This document shows, piece by piece, positions 25,193 to 61,816 of a stretch of DNA of 64,000 nt. Numbering within the stretch: the first letter of the stretch is position 1; every line of letters begins with the position of its first letter. The notes beneath the pieces are model-generated. The model ran no database searches, was not told the DNA's origin, and saw only the letters and a program-made list of their open reading frames with translations. Source of the stretch: Minisyncoccota bacterium (GTDB lineage Bacteria > Patescibacteriota > Minisyncoccia > Phycocordibacterales > Phycocordibacteraceae); assembly GCA_035627655.1 (NCBI GenBank), contig DASPLI010000001.1, forward strand, positions 259,355-323,354, read 5' to 3'. Both the position numbers and the translations under genes were made by a program.

Positions 25193-25195
25193 GGA

Positions 25196-25233: not shown

Positions 25234-25240
25234 TGACAAG

Positions 25241-26041: not shown

Positions 26042-26111
26042 ATACGTTCCATCATAGCCTACCTTGACTTTGTCTTGAAAATGTCGTAAACCGCGGACAG
26101 CACTTGCTTTT

Positions 26112-26130
26112 TCTGTCTACTTAGTGTACA
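26112..26130. promoter_or_regulatory. Palindromic candidate operator TAGTGT-N7-ACACTA in divergent promoter region upstream of PP2C gene
   Basis: Same half-sites and spacing as site upstream of pnuC (49709-49727). Confidence 0.45.
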
Positions 26131-26218
26131 AATGACACTAGGTAGCGAAATGGCGCTGCAGTTCCTTGAAAGGACCCATAACCCATTGCATCTAATCAAT
26201 TGAAAGGGGGTTGATCCC

Positions 26219-28910: not shown

Positions 28911-28939
28911 GTTGAGGACCATCACAACGGAGACGTAAC

Positions 28940-30028: not shown

Positions 30029-30102
30029 CGGTCATCCGGGCGTGTGCGGCGAGAGTAATCTCGCCGCATGGGCCCATCACATCAACCAGGGAAGGACATC
30101 CC

Positions 30103-30888
30103 ATGAACTCAACTGACGTTGGCGCTCTATTTAGCGCCGCAGGTAAAGACGGAACGCTCTCCAAAGGAGCGCTCTCGGTGCTCGACGCCGAAGACATCGG
30201 CGCCGTGATCAACCAAGGACTCGGCATCACACCCGACGACATCACTGCAAGCGAGGTCAACAACGTGTTCATGCTGCTCGACGACTCCAGTTCGATCGAG
30301 CATGCGGGCAACACGCAGCATGTTCGCGACGGGCACAACCTGATCGTGGACTCGCTACTGAAGACCAAGCAGGCGGATGCCATCATCATGTGCGGTCGCG
30401 CCCTCAATCGCGGGCAGATCTACCCGTGCGTTCGCCTCCCGGATGTGCCGCGTCTTGACGCGAGCAACTACAATCCGTCGGGCGGCACGCCGTTGTATGA
30501 CGAATCGACGATCATTCTCGGCATGGCGGCCGCCAAGCATCAGCAGTTTGCTGACAATGGCGTGCCGTGCCGGACGATCGTGCCGATCATCACCGACGGC
30601 GCCGACGTGGGCTCCCGCAAGCAGCGGCCAGACCACGTGCGGACCATCGTGCAAGATCTTCTGCGCACCGAGCAGTTCATCGTGATCGGCGTCGGCATCG
30701 ACGACGGCGTGACGAACTTCCGGTCGGTGTTCCAAAGCATGGGCATCGACGACCGCTGGATCCTGACCCCAGGCAATTCGCCAAGCGAAATTCGCAAGGC
30801 GTTTGCGATGGTGTCCCAGTCGGTATCGCGTGCGAGCCAGAACGCGCAAGCGTTCAGCACGGCTGCAATGGGCGGGTTTGCGGGGTAA
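30103..30888 (+). CDS. von Willebrand factor A (vWA) domain protein, TerY-like
   Basis: MIDAS DxSxS (LLDDSSSI), GGTPL, ITDGAD. Confidence 0.75.
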   Translation: MNSTDVGALFSAAGKDGTLSKGALSVLDAEDIGAVINQGLGITPDDITASEVNNVFMLLDDSSSIEHAGNTQHVRDGHNLIVDSLLKTKQADAIIMCGRALNRGQIYPCVRLPDVPRLDASNYNPSGGTPLYDESTIILGMAAAKHQQFADNGVPCRTIVPIITDGADVGSRKQRPDHVRTIVQDLLRTEQFIVIGVGIDDGVTNFRSVFQSMGIDDRWILTPGNSPSEIRKAFAMVSQSVSRASQNAQAFSTAAMGGFAG

Positions 30889-30921
30889 GATCCGCAGACC
30901 TCGGGTCCTGTTCTTTACAGG

Positions 30922-30946
30922 AAGCAGGAGGAGCATGATGCTCCTC
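30922..30946. repeat. Near-perfect 25-bp palindrome CAGGAGGAGCAT-G-ATGCTCCTCCTG
   Basis: 12-bp inverted arms around single central base. Confidence 0.6.
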
Positions 30947-30960
30947 CTGCAATCCTCGCT

Positions 30961-31024
30961 GAGATTCCTTCGGGAATCTCCTTTATAGGAGGCTTGAATC
31001 CTTCGAGCCTCCTTCAAGGAGAGA
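30961..31024 (+). promoter_or_regulatory. Structured leader element copy A (outer TCTCCTT/AAGGAGA helix enclosing GGAGGCT...AGCCTCC hairpin; 3' arm overlaps ARH RBS)
   Basis: Paralogous to 32039-32088 with compensatory stem substitutions. Confidence 0.5.
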
Positions 31025-31029
31025 GTTCT

Positions 31030-31992
31030 TTGCAACAACAGATCTCGCTCATCGAACGCTATCGCGGCGCGATGATTGGCGTACATGTCGGAGATGCGCT
31101 TGGGGCACCATACGAAACGTGGCCCGAAGAACGTATTCTCGCGGACATGCAGGCGCGCGACGGGCTCGTGCTCTTCGACTACGAAGACCCGTGGGGTAAG
31201 GACGGCCTCTTTCCGGCCGGATGCCCGACGGACGACTCGGAGTTGACCGCCGTACTCGCCGAACATCTTATTGAGAACCCAGAAGATCTTGAAGATCTCT
31301 ACGCACGCTTTCGCAGCTGCGTGGTGGATCGCAAGAGCCGCTTGTGCGCGCTTCCAGCATATGGATTTGGCGGCACAACGCGACGGGCGCTCAAGGAGCC
31401 GACGTATCGGGAAGCAGTTCAGCAGCCTAATACGCGGCCGCCGATTCCAAGCAACGGAGCGTTGATGCGGGCAGTGCCGATACCGCTTCGGTTCTTCGGT
31501 AGTCCGCGACAGGTCTCCGACTGCGCGTACGTTACATCGCTTATGACGCACCGGCATCCGCAAGCCATCGACGCATCCGTCGTCTATGCGCATCTGCTCT
31601 ATGGCGTTCTCGAACACGGGAACTACGAGCAGGCGGTCGCACGACTCGTCGGCATGTTGCCCGGTCTCACTGTCGACCAGGCGATTATCGACATCTTCCA
31701 TTCGCCGGCTCAAAAACCGGTGTTTGAAGGAAAGTTCGGCGGCGGCGCGCTCCATACACTTTGTGTGGTGCATTGGGCCGTCTCGACATCCACTTCCTTT
31801 GAAGAGGGGATGACGAAAGCAATCACGATCGGTAGTGATACCGATACGTACGGCGCGGTCGCTGGCGGTCTCCTCGGCGCCACCTACGGTGTACGAGGGA
31901 TCCCAGCCAAGTGGAAACATGGATTGCTTGGCGGCGTTCGTATGTGGCAGCTTGCTGAGAAGCTGCATGCGCTCGCCAATCCAGCGTCGTAA
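31030..31992 (+). CDS. ADP-ribosylglycohydrolase family protein (DraG/ARH-like)
   Basis: IERYRGAMIGVHVGDALGAPYE N-terminal signature, DDSELT, GSDTDTYGAVAGGLLGATYG C-terminal signature; likely TTG start at 31030 after AAGGAGAG (ORF-track start 30994 also TTG). Confidence 0.75.
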   Translation: MQQQISLIERYRGAMIGVHVGDALGAPYETWPEERILADMQARDGLVLFDYEDPWGKDGLFPAGCPTDDSELTAVLAEHLIENPEDLEDLYARFRSCVVDRKSRLCALPAYGFGGTTRRALKEPTYREAVQQPNTRPPIPSNGALMRAVPIPLRFFGSPRQVSDCAYVTSLMTHRHPQAIDASVVYAHLLYGVLEHGNYEQAVARLVGMLPGLTVDQAIIDIFHSPAQKPVFEGKFGGGALHTLCVVHWAVSTSTSFEEGMTKAITIGSDTDTYGAVAGGLLGATYGVRGIPAKWKHGLLGGVRMWQLAEKLHALANPAS

Positions 31993-31996
31993 TGCG

Positions 31997-32024
31997 TGGT
32001 GTGCGGGCCTTCGGGCCTGCACAC
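31997..32024 (+). other. GC hairpin with UUCG loop (GTGTGCGGGCC-TTCG-GGCCTGCACAC) after ARH gene
   Basis: 10/11-bp stem, no T-run. Confidence 0.4.
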
Positions 32025-32038
32025 TCCGCTTGTTCTAG

Positions 32039-32088
32039 CGAGATCTCCTTTATGGAGCGTTTGAGTTTCTCGAACGCTCCTCAAGGAA
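32039..32088 (+). promoter_or_regulatory. Structured leader element copy B upstream of nadE
   Basis: GAGATCTCCTTTATGGAGCGTTTGA...TCGAACGCTCCTCAAGGAAA; stem GGAGCGTT/AACGCTCC. Confidence 0.5.
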
Positions 32089-32142
32089 ATTGTGATCTTT
32101 GAGAACTATCGAACTCACCACTTCTAACAGAAGGAGGACTAC

Positions 32143-34014
32143 ATGCTTGGTTCACCGGTCCGGATCGTCGTCGCGCAAGTGGGGGCGGTTCCGGGTGATG
32201 TTGCGACCAACTTCGCAAACATATTCGACACGATTGCGACTGCGCGACGCGCGGCCGCCGATATCGTGGTGTTGCCGGAGCTTGCAACCACGGCATATGT
32301 GCTCGGCGATCGCTGGGAATACGACGCGTTCATTCGCGAAACCCAAGAAATCAACGAGCGGATCCGCGAAGCCTCCCGAGGACTCACTGTCATCTGGGGC
32401 TCGATCAAAGCGGATTTCGGCAAGATGGGCGAAGACGGTCGCGTGCGAAAATACAACGCCGCCTTCATCGCATCTCACGGCCGCTGGATCTCAAACGGCA
32501 CGCTGGACGGGTTCGTTCCCAAGACGAATCTGCCTAAGTACCGCATCTTCGACGATGCGCGCCACTTCTACCCGGCGGGGAAACTCGCCGCGGAAATGCA
32601 GACGCGTCTTGAAACGCTGCTCGCACCCTTCCCGCTGGTCATCAAAGGCAAGCGCTACAACATTGCGCTCTCTGTCTGCGAAGACCTCTGGCAGGACGAG
32701 TACAACGAGAAACCGGCGCAGATCTACAGTGCGCACGACTCCGATCTCATCATCGACATCTCGTGCTCGCCGTGGACGTACGGCAAGTGGCATGCGCGCG
32801 AAAATATGCTGAAGCGCCGCGTGAAGGACACGGGCATCCCGATCCTCTACGTGAACGCGATCGGCCTCGAAAACAACACCAAGAACTTGATTTGGTTCGA
32901 TGGCGACTCAGCGCTCATCGACGCCGAAGGACGGTTCCGGTGGCGCGGCCAACAGCACAAAGAGCAGATCCACATCCTCGATCTCGATGATCTCGACGGC
33001 CCACTCCCTGAGCGGACCTATACGGGTATCAAAGAGATTCACGACGCGACAGTCGCGGCAATGAAAGCCTTCTACGCTCCGTTCGCACGGGTCGTCGTCG
33101 GGCTTTCAGGCGGCATCGATTCGGCGCTCGCGCTCGCGCTTCTCACCGAAGCGCTCGGCGCCAAGCGACTGCTTGCGGTCAACATGCCGACCGAGTTCAA
33201 CTCGGAAACTACCCGAGGACTCGCAGCGCTCTGCGCTCGGAACCTCGGTGTCGAGTACGTCATCTCTCCGATCCAAGAAGCGTACGAGGAAGAACTTCGT
33301 GCGCTTCAAAAGCTCGGCATGACGCCGTCCGCACTCGATCGGGAAAACATCCAGGCAGTCTTGCGCGGCACGCGTCTCAACGCGATCGCCAAAGCGCAAG
33401 GCAGTATGCATGGCGGCGCCGGCGCATTCACCTGCAACGGCAACAAGACCGAGATGGCCCTCAACTACTTCACCCTCTATGGGGACGGAGCGGGCGCTGC
33501 GGCCTTTCTAGCCGATCTCTGGAAGGGTCAGATCTACGAGCTTGCACGCTACATCAACGAGCGTGCGGGCCGCGAGCTGATCCCGCAAGGGATTCTCGAC
33601 ATCGTGCCGTCGGCGGAACTCTCGAAGGATCAAGCGGTCGATGAGGGGAAGGGAGATCCTATCTTCTTCCCGTATCACGACCAGCTCCTGCGGGCGTTCA
33701 CCGAACTGCGCTGGGATCCGACCACGGTGCTCGAGCACTTGTGCGAAAGCAACGAGGCGCTCGAGCAGAAGCTCGGCTGTGCTCCCGGCACCGTCGCTCG
33801 GTACTTCAACTCGCGCCGCACGCTCGTCGATAACCTCGAATGGGCGTGGCGCCAGTACAACACCGAGTTCAAGCGCGGACAGACGCCGCCGGTCTTCCTC
33901 ACGTCGCGCCGAGCCTTCGGGTTCGACCGACGCGATACGATCGCCGCGGGATACCTGACGAAGCGCTACCAAGAACTCAAGCAAGCGTACTTGGCCGGCG
34001 AACTCGTCGCGTGA
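32143..34014 (+). CDS. nadE: Glutamine-dependent NAD+ synthetase (N-terminal CN-hydrolase/nitrilase domain + C-terminal NAD synthetase domain)
   Basis: 623 aa; nitrilase-type N-domain; GLSGGIDSAL PP-loop in C-domain; RBS AGGAGG. Confidence 0.88.
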   Translation: MLGSPVRIVVAQVGAVPGDVATNFANIFDTIATARRAAADIVVLPELATTAYVLGDRWEYDAFIRETQEINERIREASRGLTVIWGSIKADFGKMGEDGRVRKYNAAFIASHGRWISNGTLDGFVPKTNLPKYRIFDDARHFYPAGKLAAEMQTRLETLLAPFPLVIKGKRYNIALSVCEDLWQDEYNEKPAQIYSAHDSDLIIDISCSPWTYGKWHARENMLKRRVKDTGIPILYVNAIGLENNTKNLIWFDGDSALIDAEGRFRWRGQQHKEQIHILDLDDLDGPLPERTYTGIKEIHDATVAAMKAFYAPFARVVVGLSGGIDSALALALLTEALGAKRLLAVNMPTEFNSETTRGLAALCARNLGVEYVISPIQEAYEEELRALQKLGMTPSALDRENIQAVLRGTRLNAIAKAQGSMHGGAGAFTCNGNKTEMALNYFTLYGDGAGAAAFLADLWKGQIYELARYINERAGRELIPQGILDIVPSAELSKDQAVDEGKGDPIFFPYHDQLLRAFTELRWDPTTVLEHLCESNEALEQKLGCAPGTVARYFNSRRTLVDNLEWAWRQYNTEFKRGQTPPVFLTSRRAFGFDRRDTIAAGYLTKRYQELKQAYLAGELVA

Positions 34015-34159
34015 CGTTCGATGTGCAGGAGGGTTTCGGCCCTCCTGCATACCGTCCTTTCCTCGGGAAAGGACTTCGTATGGGGCGCCTAAGCAGATGC
34101 TTGGACGCCGCAACGGAGTTACAGATCTTTTTCACCTATAGACAACAGAAAGGAAACCA

Positions 34160-35527
34160 ATGACTGACTTCGTGGGGCGCGTACTGCGTCCTGAAAAAGA
34201 CGATTGGGTAATCCGGTCGCTTCTCGACGTGGACTTTTACAAGTTCACGATGGGGCTCTTTATCTTCCTGCTGCATCGCGGCGTGGAGGTGGAGTTCTGC
34301 CTGATCAACCGAAACCTAAAGCTTCCCCTCGCCGATATCGTCGACGAGGAGGAGCTTCGGCGACAGCTCGATCACGTGCGTACGCTGTGCCTCTCGCGCA
34401 CGGACGTCGTGTACTTGCGTGGCCAGGATGTGTACGGGCACAACATGTTCCCGGAAAACTATCTGGCGTTCTTGCGGCAGCTCGCGCTGCCCGAGTACAC
34501 GCTTCGGCGCGTCGGCAATCAGTATGAGCTGAAGTTCAAGGGTTCGTGGGAAACGGTGACGTTTTGGGAAACCATCGCGCTCGCCATCATTTCGGAACTC
34601 TTCTACCGCGCGCTCATGCAGTCGATGCCTGAGCACGAATTGCGCGTGCTATTTGGCCGCGCGATTGATCGCCTCTATCGGAAGCTCGAGAAGCTCAAGA
34701 CGCGTCCCTGGATTCGGTTCGCCGATTTCGGGCAGCGTCGCCGCTTCAGCTTCCTCTGGCAGCGGTTCGTTGATCAGACGTGTCGCGAGGTCGTGCCGCA
34801 GCAATTTGTGGGGACCAGTAACACCTGGATGGCCTTCAATCAGGACTTGGTGCCCATCGGTACCAATGCGCACGAGCTTCCCATGGTCCTCACCGCGCTT
34901 GCGGAGGGGGACGAAGCGAAGCGGTACGCGCAGTATCAGGTGCTCAGGGAGTGGGGAGGCATGTTCCCGCAAAACGCCCTGCGCATCATGCTGCCGGATA
35001 CCTACGGCTCCGAGCAGTTCTTCCAGAACATGCCGGCCGATCTTGCCGAAGAAGTTGCCGAAACCTGGCGCGGCCAGCGTCAGGATTCGGGCGATCCGAT
35101 CACGGAATGCCGCCGCTACACATCGTGGCTGCGCGGTTATATCCAGCCGGCACGCATTCGTTCAGAGCGCCTCAACATCTTTTCCGACGGCCTCGACATC
35201 GATCCCATCTTTGAGTTCGATGACCAGGTCAGAGACGAGATCCTCATCTCAAACGGGTGGGGTACGACGCTCACGAACGACTTCATCGATTGCCATCCGC
35301 GACCAGACGACCGTGCGGTCGTGCGCGGCAAAACGCTCGAGCTGACGAACCGTCAGTTGTGGCGTGGGCACTCGATCGTCTGCAAAGTCGAGTACGCCAA
35401 CGGGCGTCCGGCGGTAAAACTTTCAAACAACATTAACAAGGCGACCGGTCCTTCCAAGGAAGCGATCGCCGAGTACGTGCGCATCTTTGGCAACGAAGGT
35501 CGCGCAGCGCAGGATGTTGTCGTCTAA
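34160..35527 (+). CDS. pncB: Nicotinate phosphoribosyltransferase
   Basis: SLLDVDFYKFTMG, FGQRRRFS, GTSNTW, QDSGDP blocks align with E. coli PncB. Confidence 0.88.
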   Translation: MTDFVGRVLRPEKDDWVIRSLLDVDFYKFTMGLFIFLLHRGVEVEFCLINRNLKLPLADIVDEEELRRQLDHVRTLCLSRTDVVYLRGQDVYGHNMFPENYLAFLRQLALPEYTLRRVGNQYELKFKGSWETVTFWETIALAIISELFYRALMQSMPEHELRVLFGRAIDRLYRKLEKLKTRPWIRFADFGQRRRFSFLWQRFVDQTCREVVPQQFVGTSNTWMAFNQDLVPIGTNAHELPMVLTALAEGDEAKRYAQYQVLREWGGMFPQNALRIMLPDTYGSEQFFQNMPADLAEEVAETWRGQRQDSGDPITECRRYTSWLRGYIQPARIRSERLNIFSDGLDIDPIFEFDDQVRDEILISNGWGTTLTNDFIDCHPRPDDRAVVRGKTLELTNRQLWRGHSIVCKVEYANGRPAVKLSNNINKATGPSKEAIAEYVRIFGNEGRAAQDVVV

Positions 35528-35574
35528 AAATACTTGAACCCCCTACGCGAACATGTTCGCGTAGGGGGTTCTTT

Positions 35575-36462
35575 TTATGGTCGTGTGCGAGTCAGGAGTC
35601 GATGACCAAGCGTGTGGTGCCAGGGCACCAAGCGCTCGATCAGCGCATCGCGCTTCACCCAGTGGACGCTATCCGCGTCGTCTGCCGCAGTGGGCGTACC
35701 GGAGAGGTACGTGCCACGGAAGAAGGTGGTCGTGATGCCGTCCGTGCTGTTGCGATAGCGAGGATCGTTGATCGGGTCTGACCCCAACCACGTGAGTTCG
35801 CTGATCTCAACGCCCGGCACTTCTTCGCCAAACTCGCGCGGAGCGGCGTCTTCGTCGCGTTCGCCGACATTGACGTGTCCGCCCGGGAAGGACAACAGAC
35901 CTTCGTGCCGATTCTTGCCGATGAGAAGTACCTCATCGGTCGACGGCCGTTCGATCGCGATGTCGACCGTGCGGAACGCAATCGGATACCGACTGTTTAC
36001 CTGCCAGATCGCCGCGTCGCGCGCGTCCCGGGTATTCATGAGTCGCGCCGACTTCCGCAGGGCGGTGCCGCTTTCGCGCGCATCTTCCGACGCAAGCTCA
36101 ACGGTCGGGAATGTGCCCGAGTAGAGCGGTAGGAAGCTGTCGCGCGATCCGTAGAGGGTGATCGGGTTGAATGGAAATTCTTTCCGGATCAGTGCATCCA
36201 GATCGCGCGACCAGAAGGTCGGGTTGATCGGATGATCGAAGATCTCAAGGATCTTCGCCCGCGGATACGCGGATTTCATCATGTCCCGCCGCGCTTCGAA
36301 GGGAAGCGGGTTTTCCCGCGTCGCCTGACCTCCGGTAGAGGCAAGGACGACGAGCAGGTAGGCATGATTGTCGCGAGCGGTGTTGAGCACATGCAAATGG
36401 CCGCGGTGAAGATAGGGCACTTGGAAGCGTCCTACCACCACCCCAACCGATGGCAGTCCCAT
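35575..36462 (-). CDS. nadM: Bifunctional nicotinamide/nicotinate mononucleotide adenylyltransferase - Nudix (ADP-ribose pyrophosphatase) fusion, NadM-Nudix type
   Basis: N-term GVVVGRFQVPYLHRGHL (HxGH nucleotidyltransferase), C-term Nudix box GGHVNVGERDEDAAPREFGEEVPGV; ATG 36460-36462 after AAGGAGA. Confidence 0.75.
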   Translation of the reverse strand: MGLPSVGVVVGRFQVPYLHRGHLHVLNTARDNHAYLLVVLASTGGQATRENPLPFEARRDMMKSAYPRAKILEIFDHPINPTFWSRDLDALIRKEFPFNPITLYGSRDSFLPLYSGTFPTVELASEDARESGTALRKSARLMNTRDARDAAIWQVNSRYPIAFRTVDIAIERPSTDEVLLIGKNRHEGLLSFPGGHVNVGERDEDAAPREFGEEVPGVEISELTWLGSDPINDPRYRNSTDGITTTFFRGTYLSGTPTAADDADSVHWVKRDALIERLVPWHHTLGHRLLTRTRP

Positions 36463-36475
36463 GGCATTTCTCCTT

Positions 36476-36491
36476 TTCTTGCTAGAAAGAA
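36476..36491. promoter_or_regulatory. 16-bp palindrome TTCTTGCTAGAAAGAA abutting nadM Shine-Dalgarno
   Basis: 7/8 matched inverted half-sites. Confidence 0.35.
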
Positions 36492-36495
36492 CGGA

Positions 36496-36524
36496 TGAAA
36501 AAAGGCAGGCTGGAATGCCTGCGC
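36496..36524 (-). terminator. Hairpin + U-run (minus orientation) between nrtR-like gene and nadM (terminator or attenuator)
   Basis: GCAGGC-ATTCCA-GCCTGC followed by TTTTTTCAT on minus strand. Confidence 0.55.
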
Positions 36525-36562
36525 TTTCTGTATTCAATCGTAAAAAAGGGGGAGTGTCAATG

Positions 36563-37249
36563 TTACAGCACCTCGATTTCCTTCACGTCCTTGGATGCAA
36601 ACGTATAGAGCTGGGCAGGGCGGGAACGGCCCCCGCGACGCTTTTTCGGGAGTTCCTTCAGGATCCCGAGCTTGAGGATTTTCTTGCGGAAGTTTCGCTT
36701 GTCGAGATCGCGCTCCAAAATGCATTCATAGGTGCGCTCAAGCTCGGTGAGCGTGAATTCCTCAGGCATCAGCTGTGCGATGAGGGTGGTGTACGTGATG
36801 CGCGAGCGCAGGCGCGCCCGGGCCGCTGCAAGCACTTCGTTGTGATCGTAGGCGAGGGTTGTCTTTTCGTGTGCCGGGCTCCACCAGGAATCGTCTGTGT
36901 CTTTGCGCTCCTCCTCCGTCAGGGCATCCCAGGGGACGCAGGCGATATAAGCGACCGCAACCGCCCGGCTGCGGGGGTCTCGATTCACTGCGCTGAAGGT
37001 CGCCAGCTGCTCCATATAGATGTGGGAGGAGGAAATGCCGGTACGACCCTTCAGGTGGCGAATAGCGGCCTCTTCAGCCGTTTCTGTGGCATCCAGGAGA
37101 CCTCCGGGAAGGCCGGGGACCCCCGGGAAGTGGGGTGGGCGGTTCACCCGGATGAGGCGGACCAAGAGGGTCGCCTCCCGAATCGTAAAGAGCGCGATGT
37201 CCGCAGCAAGGACCGCAAACCGCAACGGCTCCGGATTTTGAGGGGTCAT
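36563..37249 (-). CDS. nrtR: Nudix-related transcriptional regulator (NrtR-like: degenerate Nudix domain + C-terminal winged-helix)
   Basis: Degenerate Nudix box GLPGGLLDATETAEEAAIRHLKGRTGI (catalytic Glu positions altered), basic helix-rich C-terminus; gene context with NAD salvage genes. Confidence 0.55.
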   Translation of the reverse strand: MTPQNPEPLRFAVLAADIALFTIREATLLVRLIRVNRPPHFPGVPGLPGGLLDATETAEEAAIRHLKGRTGISSSHIYMEQLATFSAVNRDPRSRAVAVAYIACVPWDALTEEERKDTDDSWWSPAHEKTTLAYDHNEVLAAARARLRSRITYTTLIAQLMPEEFTLTELERTYECILERDLDKRNFRKKILKLGILKELPKKRRGGRSRPAQLYTFASKDVKEIEVL

Positions 37250-37292
37250 ATGGACACTATAGCAAGGCGCCAGGCCGAATGATACGAAAAGT

Positions 37293-37347
37293 TTGACATA
37301 CCTTCGCGTTTCCTATAGATTTTGCGTATCCGCCTCAGGCGGCTTTT
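37293..37347 (+). promoter_or_regulatory. Promoter TTGACA-N17-TAGATT and leader hairpin CCGCC-TCA-GGCGG + CTTTT upstream of rpsS
   Basis: Consensus hexamers 37293-37298 / 37316-37321. Confidence 0.55.
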
Positions 37348-49740: not shown

Positions 49741-50436
49741 ATGACTATCCGCGCACTTCTGGGAACCAAGCACGATGTCCTCGAGCAGACCTATGTTGCC
49801 CTTGCCATGCTCGTGGTGACGTTTCTCTACGAGGGCATCACCGCTTACGCCATTCCTGGCTTTACGTTCAACATCTATGAAGCAGTCGGTACCTGGACAG
49901 GTCTCGTCTGTGTCTGGCTTTCACGGACGCGTAACATCCTGTGCTGGCCGTGGGGGATTGTGAGTGCGCTCTCGCTCGGGTTCTTCTTCTCCCAGATTGG
50001 TCTTCCTGGGCAGCAGTGGCTCAACTGGGTCTACTTCATGATCATTCAGCTGTGGGCATGGCCGCACTGGGCCTTTGGCGGAGCGGATAAGACCGAACTT
50101 CCGGTAACAGAGCTCTCCTGGAAAGGGAAGGTGCTGACAGTTCTCGCGATCCTCGCTGGTACCGCACTCGTCTACTACGCGATCGGCTACTTTGCGCCAG
50201 GTTCCTTCCATCCGCTGCTCGACGCTCTGGTCGTCGCCTCAAGCGTGGTTGCGCAGTACCTGCTTGGTAAGAAGAAGGTGGAGAGTTGGATTCTCTGGCT
50301 GGGACCGGTGAACCTGGTTTCGATCGTGCTCTTTGCGATGGCAGGCGCGTATACAGTTGCCGCCCTCTACCTCGCATTCTTTATCCATGCGATCTTCGCG
50401 CTTGGTGCGTGGACGAAGGCGAAGAGCCATGTATAA
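49741..50436 (+). CDS. pnuC: Nicotinamide riboside transporter PnuC
   Basis: Blocks YEAVGTWTGLVCVWLS, QIGL...WLNW, VESWILWLGPVNLVSIVLFAMAGAY align with E. coli PnuC. Confidence 0.85.
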   Translation: MTIRALLGTKHDVLEQTYVALAMLVVTFLYEGITAYAIPGFTFNIYEAVGTWTGLVCVWLSRTRNILCWPWGIVSALSLGFFFSQIGLPGQQWLNWVYFMIIQLWAWPHWAFGGADKTELPVTELSWKGKVLTVLAILAGTALVYYAIGYFAPGSFHPLLDALVVASSVVAQYLLGKKKVESWILWLGPVNLVSIVLFAMAGAYTVAALYLAFFIHAIFALGAWTKAKSHV

Positions 50437-53136: not shown

Positions 53137-53258
53137 AGCTATGGTTAGTGAATAAACCTAGGATCGGTTCTACAGAATGGTGCATGAATCGGACATGAAG
53201 CATCTTTCATCATCTATGGTATTGTGCCCTCGGCTTGTTATTTGAAAGGAGCCAACCA

Positions 53259-54341
53259 ATGCCAACGGACGTAACGACTATCGTCCTGACCGGCGGCCCT
53301 TGTGGCGGGAAAACAACAGCGCTTGCACACCTTGAATGGGAACTACCGCGCCATGGCGTCCGGGTCATTACTGTCCCGGAGGCGGCACGGATGCTGATGT
53401 CTTCCGGCCTCATTCCGGCGCAGGTCGGATGGGGTGCATTTCAGGAAGCCATACTTCGTACCCAGCTTGCGCATGAGGATACGTTTCGCTCGCTTGCGTC
53501 TCGGTACGAGAGCGGGCCGACCGTCATGCTCTGCGACCGCGGAGCCATAGACAACCGGGCGTATGTTTCCGAAGAAGTGTTCCAGAATCTCTTGGACCAC
53601 GTCGGCGTGAAGCTTACGGAAGTGCGCGACAATCGCTACGACGCCGTGCTGCATCTGCTGACGGCGGCAAGTGGTGCGGAAGCGCACTATGTGCAGGACA
53701 ATGAGCGACTCGAGTCGCTCGAGGATGCGCGCCGTCTTGATCAGGCGACGCAGCATGCATGGGTCGGCCATCCGCACTTGCGGGTGATCGACAACTCAAC
53801 CGACTTTGAAGGCAAGAAGCAGCGCGTCCTTGATGAAGTGTTGCGCATTCTCGGGCTGCCCGTGCCGCTTGAGATCGAGCGTAAGTACATCATTGAACGC
53901 TGGGTCTTAAAGAAGCTTCCAGCGCATGCGCAGATGGTTGAAGTCGAGCAGTACTATCTCGACGGCAGCGGAGATGCGTATCAAGAGCGCATTCGCAGAC
54001 GCACGCAGCATGGCTGCTCCGTCTTCTATCGCACGTACAAAGTAAAAGTTGGTACCGGGGTCAATGAGGAGCGCGAATGGCGTATCACGGAAGAGGAGTT
54101 CAACCTTGAACGAGATACGCGCGCACTCACGCGGGTGTGCAAGAATCGCTGGTGCTTCCTCTATGAGCATCAGTACTTCGAGCTCGACGACTTCTCGCCG
54201 ATGGGACGCGATCTGTGCCTCATGGAGCTTGAACTAACCCACGAGCAGCAGACGCCCGTGTTTCCCGACTGGATGGGGAAGGTGATTGATGTCACCGATA
54301 ACCCGAGCTACGGGAATTACGCGCTCGCGTTTCCGGTCTAA
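53259..54341 (+). CDS. P-loop NTPase (NadR-kinase-like AAA_28-type) fused to C-terminal CYTH (triphosphate tunnel metalloenzyme) domain
   Basis: Walker A TIVLTGGPCGGKTTALAHL; CYTH signature EIERKYII at domain start; ATG 53259 after AAGGAG. Confidence 0.55.
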   Translation: MPTDVTTIVLTGGPCGGKTTALAHLEWELPRHGVRVITVPEAARMLMSSGLIPAQVGWGAFQEAILRTQLAHEDTFRSLASRYESGPTVMLCDRGAIDNRAYVSEEVFQNLLDHVGVKLTEVRDNRYDAVLHLLTAASGAEAHYVQDNERLESLEDARRLDQATQHAWVGHPHLRVIDNSTDFEGKKQRVLDEVLRILGLPVPLEIERKYIIERWVLKKLPAHAQMVEVEQYYLDGSGDAYQERIRRRTQHGCSVFYRTYKVKVGTGVNEEREWRITEEEFNLERDTRALTRVCKNRWCFLYEHQYFELDDFSPMGRDLCLMELELTHEQQTPVFPDWMGKVIDVTDNPSYGNYALAFPV

Positions 54342-54346
54342 GACTG

Positions 54347-54380
54347 AAGCCCGCACCGCAAAGGTGCGGGCTTTTCTTTG
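54347..54380 (+). terminator. Intrinsic terminator
   Basis: AAGCCCGCACC-GCAAA-GGTGCGGGCTT + TTCTTTG. Confidence 0.8.
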
Positions 54381-54397
54381 GGCTATACTTAAACCGA

Positions 54398-55153
54398 ATG
54401 AATATCTTCAAGAAGATCAACTCCATTACGGGAAAGTTGCCGCTTGCGGGTAATGAAGCGACGCGCGGCGTTATGCGCGAGGGCATCATCCGGGAGCCTG
54501 ATATAGAGAAGCGCATGAAGCGCATGGGGTTTGCGATGGGTTTTACGTCGGTCATGGTCATCTTCCATGCCTTTCAGGCGGATATGGGAGCTGAGAAGGG
54601 CCGCGAGCTCATGGAAGATTCGTACGAGCAGTTTCTCCAAGATGGCACGATCGATACTTCCGACCTGTCACAAGAAGCTGCAGCCGCATTCGCCTACATC
54701 TACGCGCTCGTCAATATCATGGTGGTCATTTCGCAGCTGTACGTGGCGTATCGCGCAGTCGCTGGCACTCGTTCACTGCTTGAAGAGAAGCAGCGAGCGT
54801 TTTTCGCAGAAATTGGTATTCATCCGGAGGGAAACAGCGACGTGGATACGCAGAAGTTGGTGCAGTATGTACTTGCGGCTGCTCGCGGAGATAAGCAGAA
54901 GCAGGACGTGCTCAAGATTGCGGTAGGGGAGAAGCCCATGCGACGACTGCTTGATGCGCTTACGCAGTCAGATCAGTGGGACACGCTTTCCATGTCTTAC
55001 GAAGAATTTGAAGCGATCATCGACCGTTTGTATAAGAACCAATGTCCGATCTATAACACCTACCCGCCCGGCAAGCCTCCCCGGATAGGCCTTCGCAATG
55101 CCGTAGAGCTTCTGGTTACTGGAGCTGCACAGGCCGTGATGCTCTCGATTTAG
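54398..55153 (+). CDS. Hypothetical protein
   Basis: 251 aa ORF with good coding appearance. Confidence 0.45.
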   Translation: MNIFKKINSITGKLPLAGNEATRGVMREGIIREPDIEKRMKRMGFAMGFTSVMVIFHAFQADMGAEKGRELMEDSYEQFLQDGTIDTSDLSQEAAAAFAYIYALVNIMVVISQLYVAYRAVAGTRSLLEEKQRAFFAEIGIHPEGNSDVDTQKLVQYVLAAARGDKQKQDVLKIAVGEKPMRRLLDALTQSDQWDTLSMSYEEFEAIIDRLYKNQCPIYNTYPPGKPPRIGLRNAVELLVTGAAQAVMLSI

Positions 55154-55223
55154 TCCAATTGTCGGTTTGCCTATTTGTTGTATAGTCCGCTCACGTTCTT
55201 TCTAATTAAAGGAGGTTGTACAC

Positions 55224-55763
55224 GTGAAGAAATTCTTTACGGACATGCTCGGGGTTCTTGCCCTGGTCGCGCTCCTAAGCCCCTACCTTGCGCTTATACT
55301 CGGGCTTTCGCTCATCGCGACAGGAGCTGCGGCACTTCTTGGGGTCTCAGCTGTGGCAGGGTATTTCTCCGTCGGCGTGATTGTCTACGGAGTATTCGCG
55401 ATCTTCACGTTCGCGTATCTCGTGACATTCGCCTATCTGCAGTGCTGTGTTGGTCTGGACTCGTTCTGGAACCATCTGCGGCATCGCGGGTGGCAAGAAA
55501 CGGGTTTCGACCTGCTTGGCGCAGTGATCTGGCCGTGGGTGTGGTTTGTGTTCGATCGGAACCTTCACGCCTTCAGGCTGACTTTCGCTGATAGCGTACT
55601 CCACGTACTGCAACAGTGGTTTGTTGGTTCGTGGCGTGGCACATCGCTCACGGTCTTCAATCCGGCAACCGGCGAAACGAAGACAGTGTACGTGAAGTCC
55701 GGCGAGCAATCTTCTGCGATGATTGCAAAAGAGATCCTGCACAAGGACGAAAAGCTGCACTAG
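55224..55763 (+). CDS. Polytopic membrane protein (GTG start after AAAGGAGG)
   Basis: Hydrophobic helices. Confidence 0.45.
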   Translation: MKKFFTDMLGVLALVALLSPYLALILGLSLIATGAAALLGVSAVAGYFSVGVIVYGVFAIFTFAYLVTFAYLQCCVGLDSFWNHLRHRGWQETGFDLLGAVIWPWVWFVFDRNLHAFRLTFADSVLHVLQQWFVGSWRGTSLTVFNPATGETKTVYVKSGEQSSAMIAKEILHKDEKLH

Positions 55764-55775
55764 CCGTATAACGGC

Positions 55776-55806
55776 AGAGCCGCCTCGATGAGAGGCGGCT
55801 CTTTCC
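55776..55806 (+). terminator. Intrinsic terminator
   Basis: AGAGCCGCCTC-GATGAG-AGGCGGCTCT + TTCC. Confidence 0.7.
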
Positions 55807-55814
55807 TATATATA

Positions 55815-56172
55815 GGTGGAGGTGGGGAGAATTGAACTCCCGTCCGAATCCGTCTTTGAGAGCGAGTCTACGACGCGTAGTCCTGATTAGGTGCTAGGGC
55901 AGGGTGCGAGGAATCGGGACGAAACCACTCCTGCCTGATCCCGATTATCTAGGCATTCCGTTCGGGAAGACGGATGCCGATCTCGTAGAAGATTCCGCCC
56001 ATATCAACCGCTACGAGAACCGGAAGATATGAACGTCGCGAAGGCGAAAACCCGGAGGTTACGCGTAGGCGAACGCAAAGTCCTTCATACCGAAGTACGG
56101 GGACTTAACGCTTGCAAAGGTATTCTTGGCAAGTTTGGGTGTGTACGTTGGTAAAGCGGTCAGCACACCTCC
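55815..56172 (-). ncRNA. ssrA: tmRNA (SsrA)
   Basis: tRNA-like 3' end on minus strand ...GGACGGGAGUUCAAUUCUCCCCACCUCCACC (T-arm + acceptor, cf. E. coli ...GGACGCGGGUUCAACUCCCGCCAGCUCCACCA); 5' GGAGGUG pairs 7/7 with 3' CACCUCC; adjacent to smpB; candidate tag ORF ...(M)KDFAFAYA-UAA. Confidence 0.7.
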
Positions 56173-56265
56173 GCTGCGTCGCACGTCTCTCAAAGAACAG
56201 ACCGTCAAAGCCGGTCACCCCCAGGAAGAAGACGATACACCGATCATCTGCTTACGGCGAGCTTC

Positions 56266-56715
56266 CTACTTTCGCTTCAGGATGCGCGCAACTTCGCGCT
56301 CCGCATCCTTCTTTTTCAGGTCTTCACGCTTGTCCGCTTTTCCTTTGCCGCGGACAACCGCGACGCGAACCTTTAGATATCTATCATTATACACCTCAAA
56401 AGGCACTATTGTCAAGCCTTTCTTCGACTCCGCATCAGCAAGTTCCGCCACTTCTTCCTTCTTAAGAAGAAGTTTTCGCGGACGCTCAGGGTCGTAGCCC
56501 TTGCCGGCGTTTGCAACCTGGTAAGGAGGGATGGTCGCGCCGATGAGATATGCCTCGCCGCCGCGCACCACAACACGCGCACCATCAAGCGATCCCTGCT
56601 TCTGGCGAAGAGACTTTGCTTCACTTCCGGTAAGCTCAATGCCCGCCGAATATGATTCGACGGTGAAAAAGCGAAGCTTGGCCTTTTTGTTCTCGAGGAG
56701 AACCATAATTCGCAT
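56266..56715 (-). CDS. smpB: SsrA-binding protein SmpB
   Basis: Canonical SmpB sequence. Confidence 0.9.
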   Translation of the reverse strand: MRIMVLLENKKAKLRFFTVESYSAGIELTGSEAKSLRQKQGSLDGARVVVRGGEAYLIGATIPPYQVANAGKGYDPERPRKLLLKKEEVAELADAESKKGLTIVPFEVYNDRYLKVRVAVVRGKGKADKREDLKKKDAEREVARILKRK

Positions 56716-56754
56716 TGTCCTACAGGAGCCTCCTACTGTATAGTGCTTGTATCT

Positions 56755-58692
56755 ATGGCACCAAAACGGGAACCGGTAAAAAAACCGGTAATAAAAAACG
56801 GTAAGAAGGGAGCACCGAAGACGCCGCGCGGACTTGTACCGGGTGGCGGCATTGGCGGCAACCTCCTCTACGTCATCATTGTGTTCTTGCTCATCATGAG
56901 CGTGTACACGCTCATTACGGGAAACAAGCCGACCGAAGAGATTGCACTCTCGCAGGTTGCCGGAGACGTGCGCGCTGGTCTTGTGACAACGGTTGAGGTG
57001 TCCGGAGACGAACTTACCCTCACGTACGTTGATGGCGCGACCAAGACATCTATGAAGGATCCGGATGCAGCGCTCACCGAGACGCTGGCATCCTATGGCG
57101 CAACTGCTGAAGAGCTTTCTAAAGTAACGATCAACATCAAGGGTCGCGGCGGATTTGAATTCTGGTTTGCAACGCTTGCGCCAATTATCCTGCCGATCAT
57201 CTTCCTGGCAGTCCTATTCTGGTTCCTCGCGCGCCAGGTACGGGGTGCCGGCATGCAAGCCTTTACGTTTGGCCAGTCCAAGGCGCGCATGATTGATCCG
57301 AAGGACACGGCGCAGCGCGTCGTGTTCGCTGATGTTGCAGGCGCGAAAGAAGCAAAGGAAGAGCTTTTGGAGATTGTCGACTTCCTCAAGAACCCGAAGA
57401 AGTTTCTTGATATTGGTGCTCGCATCCCGAAGGGCATCATTCTCATGGGTGCGCCTGGTACGGGCAAGACCCTGCTTGCGCGCGCAGTAGCTGGAGAGGC
57501 GGGCGTGCCGTTCTTCTCCATTTCCGGTTCTGAGTTCGTAGAAATGTTCGTCGGTGTGGGCGCATCTCGCGTACGCGACCTCTTCCAGATGGCAAAGCGT
57601 GCCGCGCCATCGATTATCTTCGTCGACGAAATTGATGCGGTGGGACGCGTGCGCGGATCGGGTATTGGTGGTGGTAACGACGAGCGCGAGCAGACCCTCA
57701 ACCAGATTCTCGTTGAGATGGACGGCTTTGATCCAGCTGAAAAGGTGATCATTATGGCTGCTACAAACCGCCCAGACGTGCTTGATCCGGCCCTGCTTCG
57801 CCCTGGACGCTTTGACCGCCGCGTGACGATTGACCTGCCGGACCGCAAAGACCGCGAGGATATTCTCATGATTCATGCGCGCAAGAAGCCGCTTGGACCG
57901 GATGTCGACCTCTCCGTTATCGCTGAGCGCACACCGGGCTTCTCGGGCGCCGAGCTCTACTCGCTTATGAACGAGGGCGCGATTCTCGCAGCACGCGAAA
58001 ACCGTAAAGAGGTAACGCAATACGACCTCATCCGCTCAATCGAGAAGGTGATGCTTGGCCCTGAGCGCAAGAGCCACCTCCTTTCGAAGAAGGAGAAGAA
58101 GGTAACGGCGTATCACGAAGCGGGGCATGCGCTCGTCTCGTCGGTGCTGCCGAACTCCGATCCGGTCCACAAGATTTCCATTATTAGCCGCGGCCGAGCA
58201 GGCGGCTACACGCTCAAGCTTCCGTTTGAGGACCGCAAGATGCAGTCGCGCAAGGAATTCCTCGATGACATTGCAACGACGCTTGGCGGCTACGTAGCGG
58301 AAGAGATGATCTTCGGCGACATTACGACCGGCCCTTCAAACGATCTTGCCGTGCTCACCTCGCTTGCGCGCAATATGGTTGCTCGCTACGGCATGTCTGA
58401 CACGCTTGGTCCGGTTGCCTTCGTCACCGATCGCGGCCTTGAAGCGGGCGAGCAGGTATCGCAGGAAGTTGCGGCAAAGATTGATGCGGAAGTGTCGCGC
58501 ATCATCGCCGAGGCGCGCGAGCGCGCAAAGAAAGTGCTTCTTGATCACCGGGGTGCGCTTGATGCGATCGCCAACCGCTTGGTGGAAGTAGAGACGGTAG
58601 AGCGTGCAGAGTTTGAAGATCTGCTTCGTGCAAACGGCATTACGCCAAAGAAGCGGGAAGAGTACGAAGAAGCAGTCACTATCACTGACTAA
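56755..58692 (+). CDS. ftsH: ATP-dependent zinc metalloprotease FtsH
   Basis: AAA Walker [20 protein letters not shown]. Confidence 0.93.
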
Positions 58693-59994: not shown

Positions 59995-60803
59995 TCCGAA
60001 CGATCGTCGCGTTTCTTGTGCTTGCGCTCGTAACAGGAGGGGTACTGGTGGTCTTGTTTCGCCAGCCGTCCAACGAAAAGACTTGGAAGGACTATCTCGC
60101 CGTACCAACAAACGTGACCTTCTCCGAAGACGGTGAGTCTGTGACGCTTAGCAGCGTGCGCGACTGGACCTACAACGAGGAAGAAGCGGTCTCGCGCACA
60201 TACGTGGACCGCACGTATGACCTCGGTTCCGTTTCAGGGCTCTGGTTTGTCGTCGAGCCGTTCCCGGACATGCCATCGTTCGGGCACACCTTGCTGGTAT
60301 TTGAGTTTACGGACGCGCCGCCAATCGCGTTCTCCGTCGAAGCGCTGCTTGAGGAAGGGGAGAACTACTCAGCATGGAAAGGACTCTTCAACGAATATGA
60401 GCTTGCCTATACGTGGGGCACGGAGCGAGACTTCCTTACGCGCCGGGCGGTGATGCTTGGCCATGAGATTTACCGGTACCAGCTGGCCGTCTCGCCAGAA
60501 GTCGCACGCGAAGTATTCGTTTCTTTCCTCAAGGGAACGCAGACGCTCGCTGAGCGCCCCGTCTTTTACAACACCCTCCTTCATAACTGCACGAACGAAC
60601 TCGCACATCTCATAAACGAACGCACGCCAGGTGCGCTTCCGTGGGATTGGTCGCGCGTGTTTACGGGCACGGCTGATCAGTATCTGTATAAGCTTGGATA
60701 CATCACCGGATCTTCTTTCAAAGAGGCGCAGGCAGCCGCACGCATCACTGAGCGCGTACGGGAACTTTCCTTGGATCCGGCATTCTCTGAGAAACTTCGT
60801 TAG
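59991..60803 (+). CDS. DUF4105 (Lnb N-terminal-like) domain protein with N-terminal TM anchor
   Basis: PSFGHTLLVFEF ... YNTLLHNCTNE pattern. Confidence 0.5.
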   Translation: MIRTIVAFLVLALVTGGVLVVLFRQPSNEKTWKDYLAVPTNVTFSEDGESVTLSSVRDWTYNEEEAVSRTYVDRTYDLGSVSGLWFVVEPFPDMPSFGHTLLVFEFTDAPPIAFSVEALLEEGENYSAWKGLFNEYELAYTWGTERDFLTRRAVMLGHEIYRYQLAVSPEVAREVFVSFLKGTQTLAERPVFYNTLLHNCTNELAHLINERTPGALPWDWSRVFTGTADQYLYKLGYITGSSFKEAQAAARITERVRELSLDPAFSEKLR

Positions 60804-60877
60804 TCCACCCGCTTGGACTCGAACCAAGGACCGCCGAGGTATAAGCTCGGAGCTCTAACCAACTGAGCTACGGGTGG
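60804..60877 (-). tRNA. tRNA with anticodon UAU (reads AUA; tRNA-Ile(UAU)-like), CCA not encoded
   Basis: rc = CCACCCG UA GCUC AGUUGGUUAG AGC U CCGAG CUUAUAC CUCGG CGGUC CUUGG UUCGAGU CCAAG CGGGUGG A; all four stems pair. Confidence 0.75.
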
Positions 60878-60922
60878 CTCCCTGCACTGTAGCGCAGGGA
60901 AGAAGGGAAGGCGACCCCTGGT

Positions 60923-61816
60923 ATGATGACCTACATGCTTGAAATACCGTGGTATGTCTTTGCGCTCCTTGGCGCACTGTTCGTATCCTTTGCGTCGGTG
61001 TTTGAGAAGAAAGTGCTCATCCACGACGAGCCGCTCCATTTCTCCGCCTCTTCTTCCGCGCTCATCGGCATCCTCTCGCTTCCGTTTCTGTTTTTCGTGG
61101 ACTGGAGTGCGATTCCTTCGATCGCGTTTCTTATCATGTACGGCGTTTCCATTCTTGCGATGCTCGCGTTTTGTTTGGTCGCCTTCTCGCTTCGAGCGCT
61201 CGAAGCAGGGGAGCAAACGCTGATTCTTGCGCTGACGCCTGCCGTTACCGCGCTCTTCGGGTTTTTATTTTTGGGAGAGACGCTTTCCACGCAAGCGTTT
61301 CTCGGTCTCATACTGATTGTGGTTGGACTGATCGTGCTTGAGTTTCCAAGCGCAAAAGCAGGATTGCACTCCCACGCCTTTCGCAAGAAGCTCGTGCCGA
61401 TATTTCTCGCCTTCGGTGCGGTGGTGGTCTACTCCCTCAGTGCCGTCGGCGACCGCATCGTACTCGGGCACTACGACGTCGACATCATCGACTTTCTGAT
61501 GATCGTGCAAGTTATGGCGCTTGCGAACTTCCTGGTGCTGAGCTGGTTTGATCGATCGCACAAGAAGTTGCTCACCTCCTCGTTCCGCCGGCACCCAATG
61601 CAGGTTGCCACGTTCTCGATCTTGCTGATCCTCTCGCGCCTTATGCACTCCCAGGCAGTATCCATGGCATACGTTGCGCTTGCCGCTGCCATCAAGCGAA
61701 GCGGCGCGCTTTTTACGATCGTGATCGCCCGCACGTATCTCAAAGAGCGCAGCGTCGGACATAAGCTGCTTGCCGGAGGCATTATTCTTGCAGGCGTCTT
61801 GTCCATCATTCTCTAA
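60923..61816 (+). CDS. EamA/DMT-family transporter
   Basis: 10 TM, two EamA-like repeats. Confidence 0.65.
   Translation: MMTYMLEIPWYVFALLGALFVSFASVFEKKVLIHDEPLHFSASSSALIGILSLPFLFFVDWSAIPSIAFLIMYGVSILAMLAFCLVAFSLRALEAGEQTLILALTPAVTALFGFLFLGETLSTQAFLGLILIVVGLIVLEFPSAKAGLHSHAFRKKLVPIFLAFGAVVVYSLSAVGDRIVLGHYDVDIIDFLMIVQVMALANFLVLSWFDRSHKKLLTSSFRRHPMQVATFSILLILSRLMHSQAVSMAYVALAAAIKRSGALFTIVIARTYLKERSVGHKLLAGGIILAGVLSIIL

Follow-up and report, generated by a model that had tools for sequence, protein, structure and literature searches.

An ftsH-linked tRNA-Ile(UAU) gene in a Minisyncoccota bacterium: a probable AUA decoder in place of the TilS-lysidine system

The subject of this analysis is a tRNA gene in a 64,000-nucleotide stretch of DNA (the window) from a Minisyncoccota bacterium (assembly GCA_035627655.1, contig DASPLI010000001.1, positions 259,355 to 323,354 of the forward strand). 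The gene specifies a tRNA-Ile with the anticodon UAU, complementary to the isoleucine codon AUA, and lies ~2.1 kb downstream of ftsH, flanked by a gene for an Lnb_N-domain protein and a gene for an EamA transporter. A first-pass annotation, made from the sequence alone, had proposed that such a tRNA would be informative about how this organism decodes AUA. The features of the locus are as follows.

60804..60877, minus strand: tRNA-Ile(UAU) gene, 74 nucleotides (nt) (ARAGORN, Rfam RF00005, family covariance model)
60839..60845, minus strand: anticodon loop CUUAUAC, read from the sequence
60879..60900, minus strand: GC-rich 9-bp hairpin that touches the 5′ end of the tRNA, within the 45 nt that separate it from the divergently oriented EamA gene
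56743..58692, plus strand: ftsH, used as synteny anchor (Pfam Peptidase_M41 and AAA)
56266-56715, minus strand: smpB (Pfam)
55814-56222, minus strand: transfer-messenger RNA (tmRNA), adjoining smpB (Rfam, 94.8 bits, full length, with large insertions)
53235..56742, no strand: region upstream of ftsH, with an AAA_28 protein, two unknown open reading frames (ORFs), the tmRNA and smpB (Pfam, Rfam)

The window is bacterial, encoding a tmRNA and SmpB, with a G+C content of ~56%, and the nearest relatives of its SecY come from metagenome-assembled genomes (MAGs) of Parcubacteria, Paceibacteria, and Minisyncoccia.

ARAGORN called a single tRNA in the window, on the minus strand at 60803-60877, and assigned it to Ile with the anticodon tat. 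Rfam RF00005 matched 60804-60877 on the same strand over the full model, with 67.8 bits (gathering score 29), an E value of 1.3e-12, and a posterior probability of "*" in all columns. The gene thus has the cloverleaf, the D- and T-loop nucleotides, and the score above the curated threshold that define membership in this family. Its RNA-sense sequence is CCACCCGUAGCUCAGUUGGUUAGAGCUCCGAGCUUAUACCUCGGCGGUCCUUGGUUCGAGUCCAAGCGGGUGGA. The first-pass annotation had described a clean cloverleaf with a UAU anticodon in the loop CUUAUAC; the ARAGORN call and the full-length Rfam match bear this out, the loop reads directly from the sequence as it was written there, and the coordinates it gave are exact, to which we add the strand that it omitted. 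It had also named a different anticodon or a different frame of the loop as a way in which the call could fail, and ARAGORN returned tat and Ile.

The anticodon loop has 7 nt, with U33 before the anticodon and a purine after it at position 37; on the plus strand, U34 corresponds to 60843, A35 to 60842, and U36 to 60841. The body of the tRNA contains C1-G72, C4-G69, C5-G68, U12-A23, A37, C38, and a 5-nt variable loop, and its 3′ end has the discriminator A73 with no encoded CCA. The absence of CCA fits with a gene for a CCA-adding enzyme ~7 kb upstream of the window (L209:1503-2966). The acceptor stem begins with C1-G72 and C2-G71 rather than with the usual G1-C72. C1-G72 is found in 10/30 related UAU tRNAs, among them every closest relative in the alignment described below (A1), so the first acceptor pair has been fully flipped within this family.

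A wrong base call at position 34, a further concern raised at first pass, is excluded because the 74-nt tRNA is identical across four separate assemblies (two from ENA, one from Logan, and one from JGI) and T34 is invariant in 29 diverged relatives. The minimum free energy fold of the single sequence is not a cloverleaf (z = −1.95); a single-sequence fold is uninformative for a tRNA, and covariation analysis was therefore used instead.

Relatives were collected by scanning JGI metagenomes with FtsH, which gave 80 FtsH-anchored loci whose tRNAs were called by ARAGORN. A tRNA-Ile(tat) was present in 29/80 of these loci, typically 0-4.4 kb downstream of ftsH, and loci bearing it include FtsH proteins down to ~53% identity with that of the window. 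Among loci with an FtsH identity of ≥60% and a downstream flank of 1 kb or more, 16 of 20 carried the tRNA. The order in UAU-bearing relatives is S1-x-FtsH-tRNA-Ile(tat)-tRNA-Val(gac), as in L033 and L063; S1 stands directly upstream of ftsH in L048, and the FtsH-tat-Val(gac) portion of this order is seen in L053. The UAU tRNA is therefore a lineage-wide trait with conserved ftsH synteny.

Thirty diverged UAU tRNAs from FtsH-anchored loci, that of the window included, were aligned (alignment A1). Their acceptor stems are highly varied (CCACCC, GGGCGC, GCGCGC, GCACGC, and others), and the cloverleaf is retained: standard pairs occupy 99.4% of stem cells, and 17 of 21 stem pairs have changed on both sides. 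The covariation score was 0.756, versus 0.184 in shuffled alignments and ≤0.151 for slid structures. Loop positions 32-37 (CUUAUA) and A73 are invariant across all 30 sequences. A covariance model built from 30 family members (R1) scores the window tRNA, itself among them, at 90.8 bits. Covariation around an invariant loop and discriminator indicates a functional tRNA with its anticodon under selection. The window tRNA is genuine and under purifying selection, and its UAU anticodon is invariant.

TilS, the lysidine synthetase that acts on tRNA-Ile2(CAU), was then located in loci of the candidate phyla radiation (CPR), the group of ultra-small bacteria (Patescibacteria) to which this genome belongs. 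It is encoded directly upstream of ftsH in eight FtsH-anchored loci without a tat tRNA; Pfam ATP_bind_3, with or without TilS_C, confirms it in L072 and L081, and tblastn identifies it in L040, L058, L065, L075, L076, and L079. Protein searches were made with a profile of four CPR TilS sequences and with a TilS from the Parcubacteria group, taking the best 120 matches of each; among the matches listed, TilS is kept in Moranbacteria, Kazan, Gracilibacteria, "Parcubacteria group," and "Patescibacteria group." Loci of the Moranbacteria type (L205, L206, L207, and L210) have the order S1 - cmk/gmk - TilS - FtsH - ... - tRNA-Val(gac). Three CAU tRNAs precede TilS and then FtsH in L211 (labelled Kazan) and L208 ("Patescibacteria group"), and TilS is likewise followed by FtsH in L212 (labelled Gracilibacteria). 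None of these seven fetched TilS loci (L205 to L208 and L210 to L212) contains a tat tRNA.

The two systems do not meet in the loci sampled, which are 1-22 kb long. The 149 tat-bearing loci (1.27 Mb) yielded no TilS; 64 of them contain ftsH, and 43 extend ≥1 kb upstream of it. The 14 TilS-bearing loci yielded no tat tRNA, and none of the 163 loci combines tilS with tat. UAU tRNA and TilS are thus mutually exclusive in these loci. In the window, no PP-loop or TilS gene lies at 53235-56742, where TilS-bearing CPR have tilS, and smpB and the tmRNA occupy the space there. The tmRNA was missed by ARAGORN, although the program does call tmRNAs, tag peptides included, at the corresponding position in relatives.

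The loci with TilS also contain a candidate counterpart of the UAU tRNA. In L065, L208, L210, and L211, one CAU tRNA near tilS-ftsH scores 76-82 bits on R1, for comparison with mostly 73-88 for true UAU tRNAs outside the training set, 60-68 for Met-type CAU tRNAs, and 37-66 for fMet-type ones. The Ile2-like CAU tRNA of L210 stands beside tRNA-Val(gac) downstream of ftsH, the same neighbourhood as that of the UAU tRNA in relatives lacking TilS. The CAU tRNAs that accompany a UAU tRNA in clusters (L089, L100, L116, L165, L183, and L188) are solely of the fMet and Met types. In CPR, both the AUA-decoder tRNA and tilS are linked to ftsH, and the two states, a CAU tRNA with TilS and a UAU tRNA without it, occur together in none of the loci sampled. 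Judging from these sequence comparisons, descent of the UAU tRNA from tRNA-Ile2(CAU) is plausible. Two TilS-bearing loci also contain, downstream of ftsH, genes that ARAGORN calls "tRNA-???" with 2-nt and 4-nt "anticodons" (L065:11273-11346 and L208:14578-14654).

For the genome under study, the contig covered comprises the window, a 7.8-kb piece downstream of it (L001), and an 8.5-kb piece upstream of it (L209), in all ~80 kb or ~11% of a 742-kb contig. With seven TilS queries, tblastn gave no match in the window, L001, or L209, and no CAU tRNA of any kind was called in these ~80 kb. Among the genes of the window, we found no tRNA-modification enzymes.

AUA is rare and in use in this genome, which answers the question of codon usage raised by the first-pass annotation: it makes up 39 of 16,056 codons in 65 confidently called genes (2.4 per 1,000 codons and 4.3% of Ile codons), and it occurs in ftsH, smpB, infC, nadE, and a carbamoyltransferase gene. 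At AUA positions, homologs in the fetched loci have Ile in 35/52 cases overall, in 24/27 for SmpB, and in 6/7 for IF3, a share similar to that at AUC and AUU positions. Because homologs mostly have Ile where this genome has AUA, the codon is, as judged from these alignments, a sense codon for isoleucine here. In AT-rich relatives bearing the UAU tRNA, AUA accounts for up to 30/52 of the Ile codons in ftsH, so that the UAU decoder is not a marginal tRNA in those genomes. The ftsH gene of L072, a TilS-bearing locus with a GC content of 64%, has AUA at 12/45 Ile codons, unexpectedly high for a GC-rich genome.

The distribution of the tRNA was surveyed more widely by searching a single genome of each GTDB species for a degenerate tRNA(TAT) pattern, which gave at least 120 matches; all 120 listed were confirmed by ARAGORN as tat tRNAs. 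The depositor labels of the 120 matches listed are tallied below. The counts are proportions of a sample and not totals, and they are indicative, the labels being partly unreliable.

CPR lineages by depositor label: 68, including "Saccharibacteria," 26; Patescibacteria group, 11; Paceibacterota/Pacebacteria/Paceibacteria, 8; Taylor-, Nomura-, and Parcubacteria, 3 each; Kaiser-, Uhr-, and Levybacteria and Minisyncoccia, 2 each; Jorgensen-, Woese-, Shapiro-, Dojka-, Peri-, and Moranbacteria, 1 each
Unlabelled "bacterium": 14
Gammaproteobacteria/Pseudomonadales: 10
Planctomycetota: 9
Chloroflexota: 5
Archaea: 4
Other labels: 10

For 35 of the 120 matches listed, the 8-kb piece with the tRNA also contains an FtsH match; among these are Kaiser-, Taylor-, Nomura-, and Jorgensenbacteria, Paceibacterota, and Minisyncoccia. 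Several labels look wrong, and the CPR share is therefore probably above what the labels suggest. MAGs labelled "uncultured Candidatus Saccharibacteria" encode an FtsH 64-75% identical to that of the Paceibacterota window; tRNA clusters of the CPR type occur in "Gammaproteobacteria" MAGs with 30-54% GC; and "Archaeon ARS54" has a tat-Val-Leu-Val tRNA cluster and a valyl-tRNA synthetase (ValRS) 44% identical to a Parcubacteria ValRS. L123, L170, L116, and L179 are examples of doubtful labels among L086 to L204. The tRNA(tat) also occurs in MAGs of Chloroflexota (L085, L098, L124, L174, and L192) and Dormibacterota (L139), groups that are placed next to the CPR in some phylogenies. The trait could therefore predate the CPR radiation. 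In Planctomycetota MAGs (L118, L130, L131, L136, and L194), the tat tRNA lies within dense arrays of 7-34 further tRNA genes in 5-8 kb, a context quite unlike that in CPR.

These results favor the reading that the UAU tRNA is the sole AUA decoder of this genome, tilS and tRNA-Ile2(CAU) having been lost and the TilS system replaced. We regard this as likely. Several points weigh against it. The negative results for TilS and CAU tRNAs in this genome span the ~80 kb given above, so that loss over the remaining ~89% of the contig is inferred. Many FtsH-anchored loci without a tat tRNA also have no tilS upstream, and adjacency of tilS and ftsH is thus not universal; a Fisher test on the first 80 loci gave p = 0.046 with kinship ignored. 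A locus labelled Candidatus Moraniibacteriota (L168), from the main TilS-bearing group of the CPR, has a good tRNA(tat) that scores 82.9 bits on R1, which points either to co-occurrence of the two systems within the CPR or to a labelling issue. On R1, tRNA-Val(UAC) also reaches ~78 bits; since the model separates Ile2-like tRNAs from Met and fMet tRNAs and not from Val(UAC), its scores argue weakly for descent from tRNA-Ile2(CAU). A motif screen combined with NCBIfam found no isoleucyl-tRNA synthetase (IleRS) in the fetched loci of the clade, which yielded only ValRS and the tryptophanyl enzyme. ValRS is the sole class Ia synthetase in a related CPR locus, and tblastn with ValRS detected distant class Ia enzymes only in one archaeon-labelled locus and one Dormibacterota locus. 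In L154, a 788-kb contig labelled "archaeon," a class Ia synthetase gene (1292-3652, minus strand) adjoins a tRNA(tat) gene (3785-3858, minus strand); its product is 23% identical to ValRS and is possibly an IleRS.

The most serious competitor is that tilS and tRNA-Ile2(CAU) persist elsewhere in the other ~660 kb and that the UAU tRNA is a second, redundant reader of AUA. Bacteria with both systems are known, among them Lactobacillus casei, Lactobacillus plantarum, Cyanothece, and Ferrimonas, in which UAU together with lysidine was termed a "transition stage" by Taniguchi et al. (PMC3575796). The ~89% of the contig outside the covered part leaves room for such an arrangement, and the Moraniibacteriota-labelled locus has tat although Moranbacteria have TilS. 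Set against this, tilS lies directly upstream of ftsH in 14/14 TilS-bearing loci, 0/14 of which have tat, and it occurs in 0/43 of the tat-bearing loci with enough sequence upstream of ftsH; moreover, tRNA clusters show two CAU tRNAs plus the UAU tRNA where others have three CAU tRNAs. We consider redundancy unlikely, while giving it far more weight than the alternatives that follow. The first-pass suggestion that a UAU anticodon goes with loss of tilS finds good support in the comparison of loci, through the mutual exclusion over 163 loci and the missing tilS upstream of ftsH; for this genome, where tilS is missing from the ~80 kb covered out of 742 kb, the loss is likely.

A different identity for the tRNA, charged with Met or another amino acid because AUA has been reassigned, or reading AUA and AUG indiscriminately, is very improbable. 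AUA stands for Met in many mitochondria (PMC2655697), and codon 419 of the beta-CASP nuclease gene, an AUA, aligns with Met in three homologs. The AUA positions are nevertheless mainly Ile, as at AUC and AUU; A73, A37, and a tRNA-Ile-like body are conserved, with Ile assigned by ARAGORN; and in the clusters of relatives the UAU tRNA occurs together with distinct Met and fMet tRNAs. That the gene is no working host gene at all, and is a pseudogene, a tRNA of a mobile element or phage, or an error at position 34, might be argued from the Planctomycete matches in large tRNA arrays, of a kind often tied to mobile DNA. The perfect structure and high Rfam score, the four identical assemblies, the invariant anticodon with abundant compensatory changes, and an ftsH synteny kept down to ~53% FtsH identity speak against this, and no integrase or phage gene was found near 59-62 kb of the window. 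This possibility is effectively refuted.

With the UAU tRNA as sole decoder, it would act as a functional minor isoleucine tRNA whose gene-encoded U34 forms a direct pair with the A that ends the rare codon AUA, doing the job that tRNA-Ile2(CAU) and TilS share in most bacteria. Most likely, an Ile2-type tRNA would have undergone a C34-to-U change or been recruited, and tilS and the CAU gene would have been lost afterward; both of these would be absent from the remaining ~89% of the genome. By analogy with work on Mycoplasma mobile, IleRS would accept U34, and misreading of AUG by U-G wobble would be suppressed by a property of the ribosome, by competition from tRNA-Met, or by modification of U34. 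A37 would carry N6-threonylcarbamoyladenosine (t6A), and CCA would presumably be added by the enzyme encoded upstream of the window. On this reading the trait is old and shared across the lineage, and the first-pass expectation that the tRNA bears on AUA decoding is well placed.

The mechanism class is already known. A gene-encoded tRNA-Ile(UAU) without tilS has been described in nine bacterial species of three clades, including M. mobile, Bifidobacterium, and Neorickettsia, and also in Nanoarchaeum and Korarchaeum. The window tRNA is probably a further member of the M. mobile type. In M. mobile, tilS is absent, U34 is unmodified, the ribosome blocks reading of AUG, and IleRS has Arg865 in place of a Trp conserved in tilS-bearing species (PMC3575796). 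Like that tRNA-Ile2(UAU), the window tRNA has a gene-encoded UAU for AUA and an A37 (t6A in M. mobile) and belongs to a bacterium with a small genome; no tilS lies where it would be expected, and both tRNAs may be derived from an Ile2-type tRNA. The two differ in that the change was a late event in a few mycoplasmas, whereas here it marks a large radiation and is syntenic with ftsH; in that unmodified U34, IleRS Arg865, and ribosomal discrimination against AUG were shown there by experiment, whereas acceptance of U34 by IleRS and avoidance of AUG are predictions here; and in the unusual C1-G72 end of the window tRNA.

The canonical system, TilS with tRNA-Ile2 (CAU to lysidine), performs the same task of reading AUA as Ile without reading AUG. 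In CPR, it occupies the same neighbourhood, with tilS upstream of ftsH and an Ile2-like CAU tRNA nearby (L065, L208, L210, and L211). The window tRNA also has C4-G69 and C5-G68, which we take to be TilS determinants in E. coli. It differs in that the wobble base is U in the gene, so that no modification of C34 is needed, and TilS is found in 0/149 UAU-bearing loci. An archaeal or eukaryotic tRNA-Ile(UAU) belongs to another domain of life, and the likeness lies in the anticodon solution, with homology not implied; the anticodon of the eukaryotic tRNA is pseudouridylated. The tRNA-Ile3(UAU) of Nanoarchaeum equitans and Korarchaeum cryptofilum, ultrasmall organisms with reduced genomes, is similar in that a gene-encoded UAU replaces a modified-C decoder (agmatidine/TiaS) (PMC8450103). 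Bifidobacterium and Neorickettsia likewise carry tRNA-Ile(TAT) and lack tilS (PMC3575796, PMC8450103), but there the adaptation is thought to rest on a horizontally acquired, eukaryote-type IleRS (IleRS2 type).

Published surveys give tRNA-Ile(UAU) in 19 cultured species (tRNADB-CE) or 17 genomes (tRNAscan-SE 2.0) and tilS in ~98% of the bacterial genomes that have been annotated, and recent papers speak of "rare cases" of UAU. The rarity claimed at first pass therefore holds for cultured bacteria; it does not hold for this lineage, where a UAU tRNA is standard and keeps its synteny with ftsH. In 2013, Taniguchi et al. reported 371 unique tDNA-Ile(TAT) sequences in a metagenome database, presumed mostly bacterial, from organisms that were not identified (PMC3575796). 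Our search, with most subscription journals outside it, found no paper joining lysidine with Patescibacteria or tilS with the candidate phyla radiation.

Transcription signals of the tRNA gene were also considered. The 40 nt upstream of it fold at −19.8 kcal/mol. The hairpin at 60879-60900 is absent from the leaders of 10 relatives and may not necessarily be part of the tRNA unit. No match to a sigma-70-type promoter was found within 60500-61300; in several relatives, a TA(G/C)AGT or TATAAT box lies 8-10 nt upstream of the mature tRNA 5′ end, which suggests very short leaders.

Elsewhere in the window, the ribosomal-protein super-operon is fragmented, with its parts located as follows.

10.1-11.0 kb: S12 and S7 (S12 = 10144-10554)
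14.7-16.9 kb: EF-G
19.3-20.9 kb: EF-Tu and S10
22.2-24.3 kb: L4 and L2 (rplB = 23302-24270)
44.3-45.6 kb: SecY

The str operon is broken up by ~3.7 kb with four genes, including one for an NlpC/P60-SH3 peptidase, between S7 and EF-G (11143-14708), and the gap between EF-G and EF-Tu (16979-19200) holds three small ORFs without a Pfam match. A further ~13 kb of nonribosomal genes (24300-37300) separates rplB from the remaining ribosomal-protein cluster, which starts at 37356. These genes encode a PP2C phosphatase, a 632-amino-acid protein without a Pfam match, an ADP-ribosylglycohydrolase, NadE, NAPRTase, a NUDIX/cytidylyltransferase protein, and an NrtR regulator, and the segment resembles an insertion of an NAD-salvage island in the S10 operon. 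A PnuC nicotinamide mononucleotide transporter is encoded at 49741-50436. The decoding loops of S12 (10144-10554), the PNSA motif among them, are canonical and give no sign of ribosomal adaptation.

The possible novelty lies in the scale, with a UAU decoder that is conserved and linked to ftsH over much of a major radiation. We lean, if only slightly, toward the view that a large part of the CPR has exchanged TilS and lysidine for a gene-encoded tRNA-Ile(UAU) at the same ftsH-linked locus, in Paceibacteria/Parcubacteria (Kaiser-, Nomura-, Taylor-, and Jorgensenbacteria), in Minisyncoccia, and apparently in other classes of Patescibacteria. In that case, lysidine would fall well short of near-universality among bacteria, and the CPR would be a likely source of many of the metagenomic tDNA-Ile(TAT) sequences from 2013. 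The IleRS enzymes and reduced ribosomes of the CPR would then need some general means by which U34 distinguishes AUA from AUG, including in those AT-rich members that have AUA as their main Ile codon. Cultured CPR would allow tests of how U34 avoids AUG on minimal ribosomes, of the recognition of U34 by IleRS, and of the dispensability of tilS. Pipelines and completeness marker sets that expect tilS or a tRNA-Ile2(CAU) will underscore these genomes; TIGR02432 (tilS) is, we presume, one of the GTDB bac120 markers. Recent papers still present lysidine as the bacterial answer to the AUA/AUG problem, and the data indicate that a major uncultured radiation has long used the UAU solution as its standard. 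The single gene is ordinary, and it is noteworthy as evidence of routine, lysidine-free decoding of AUA in a large bacterial radiation.

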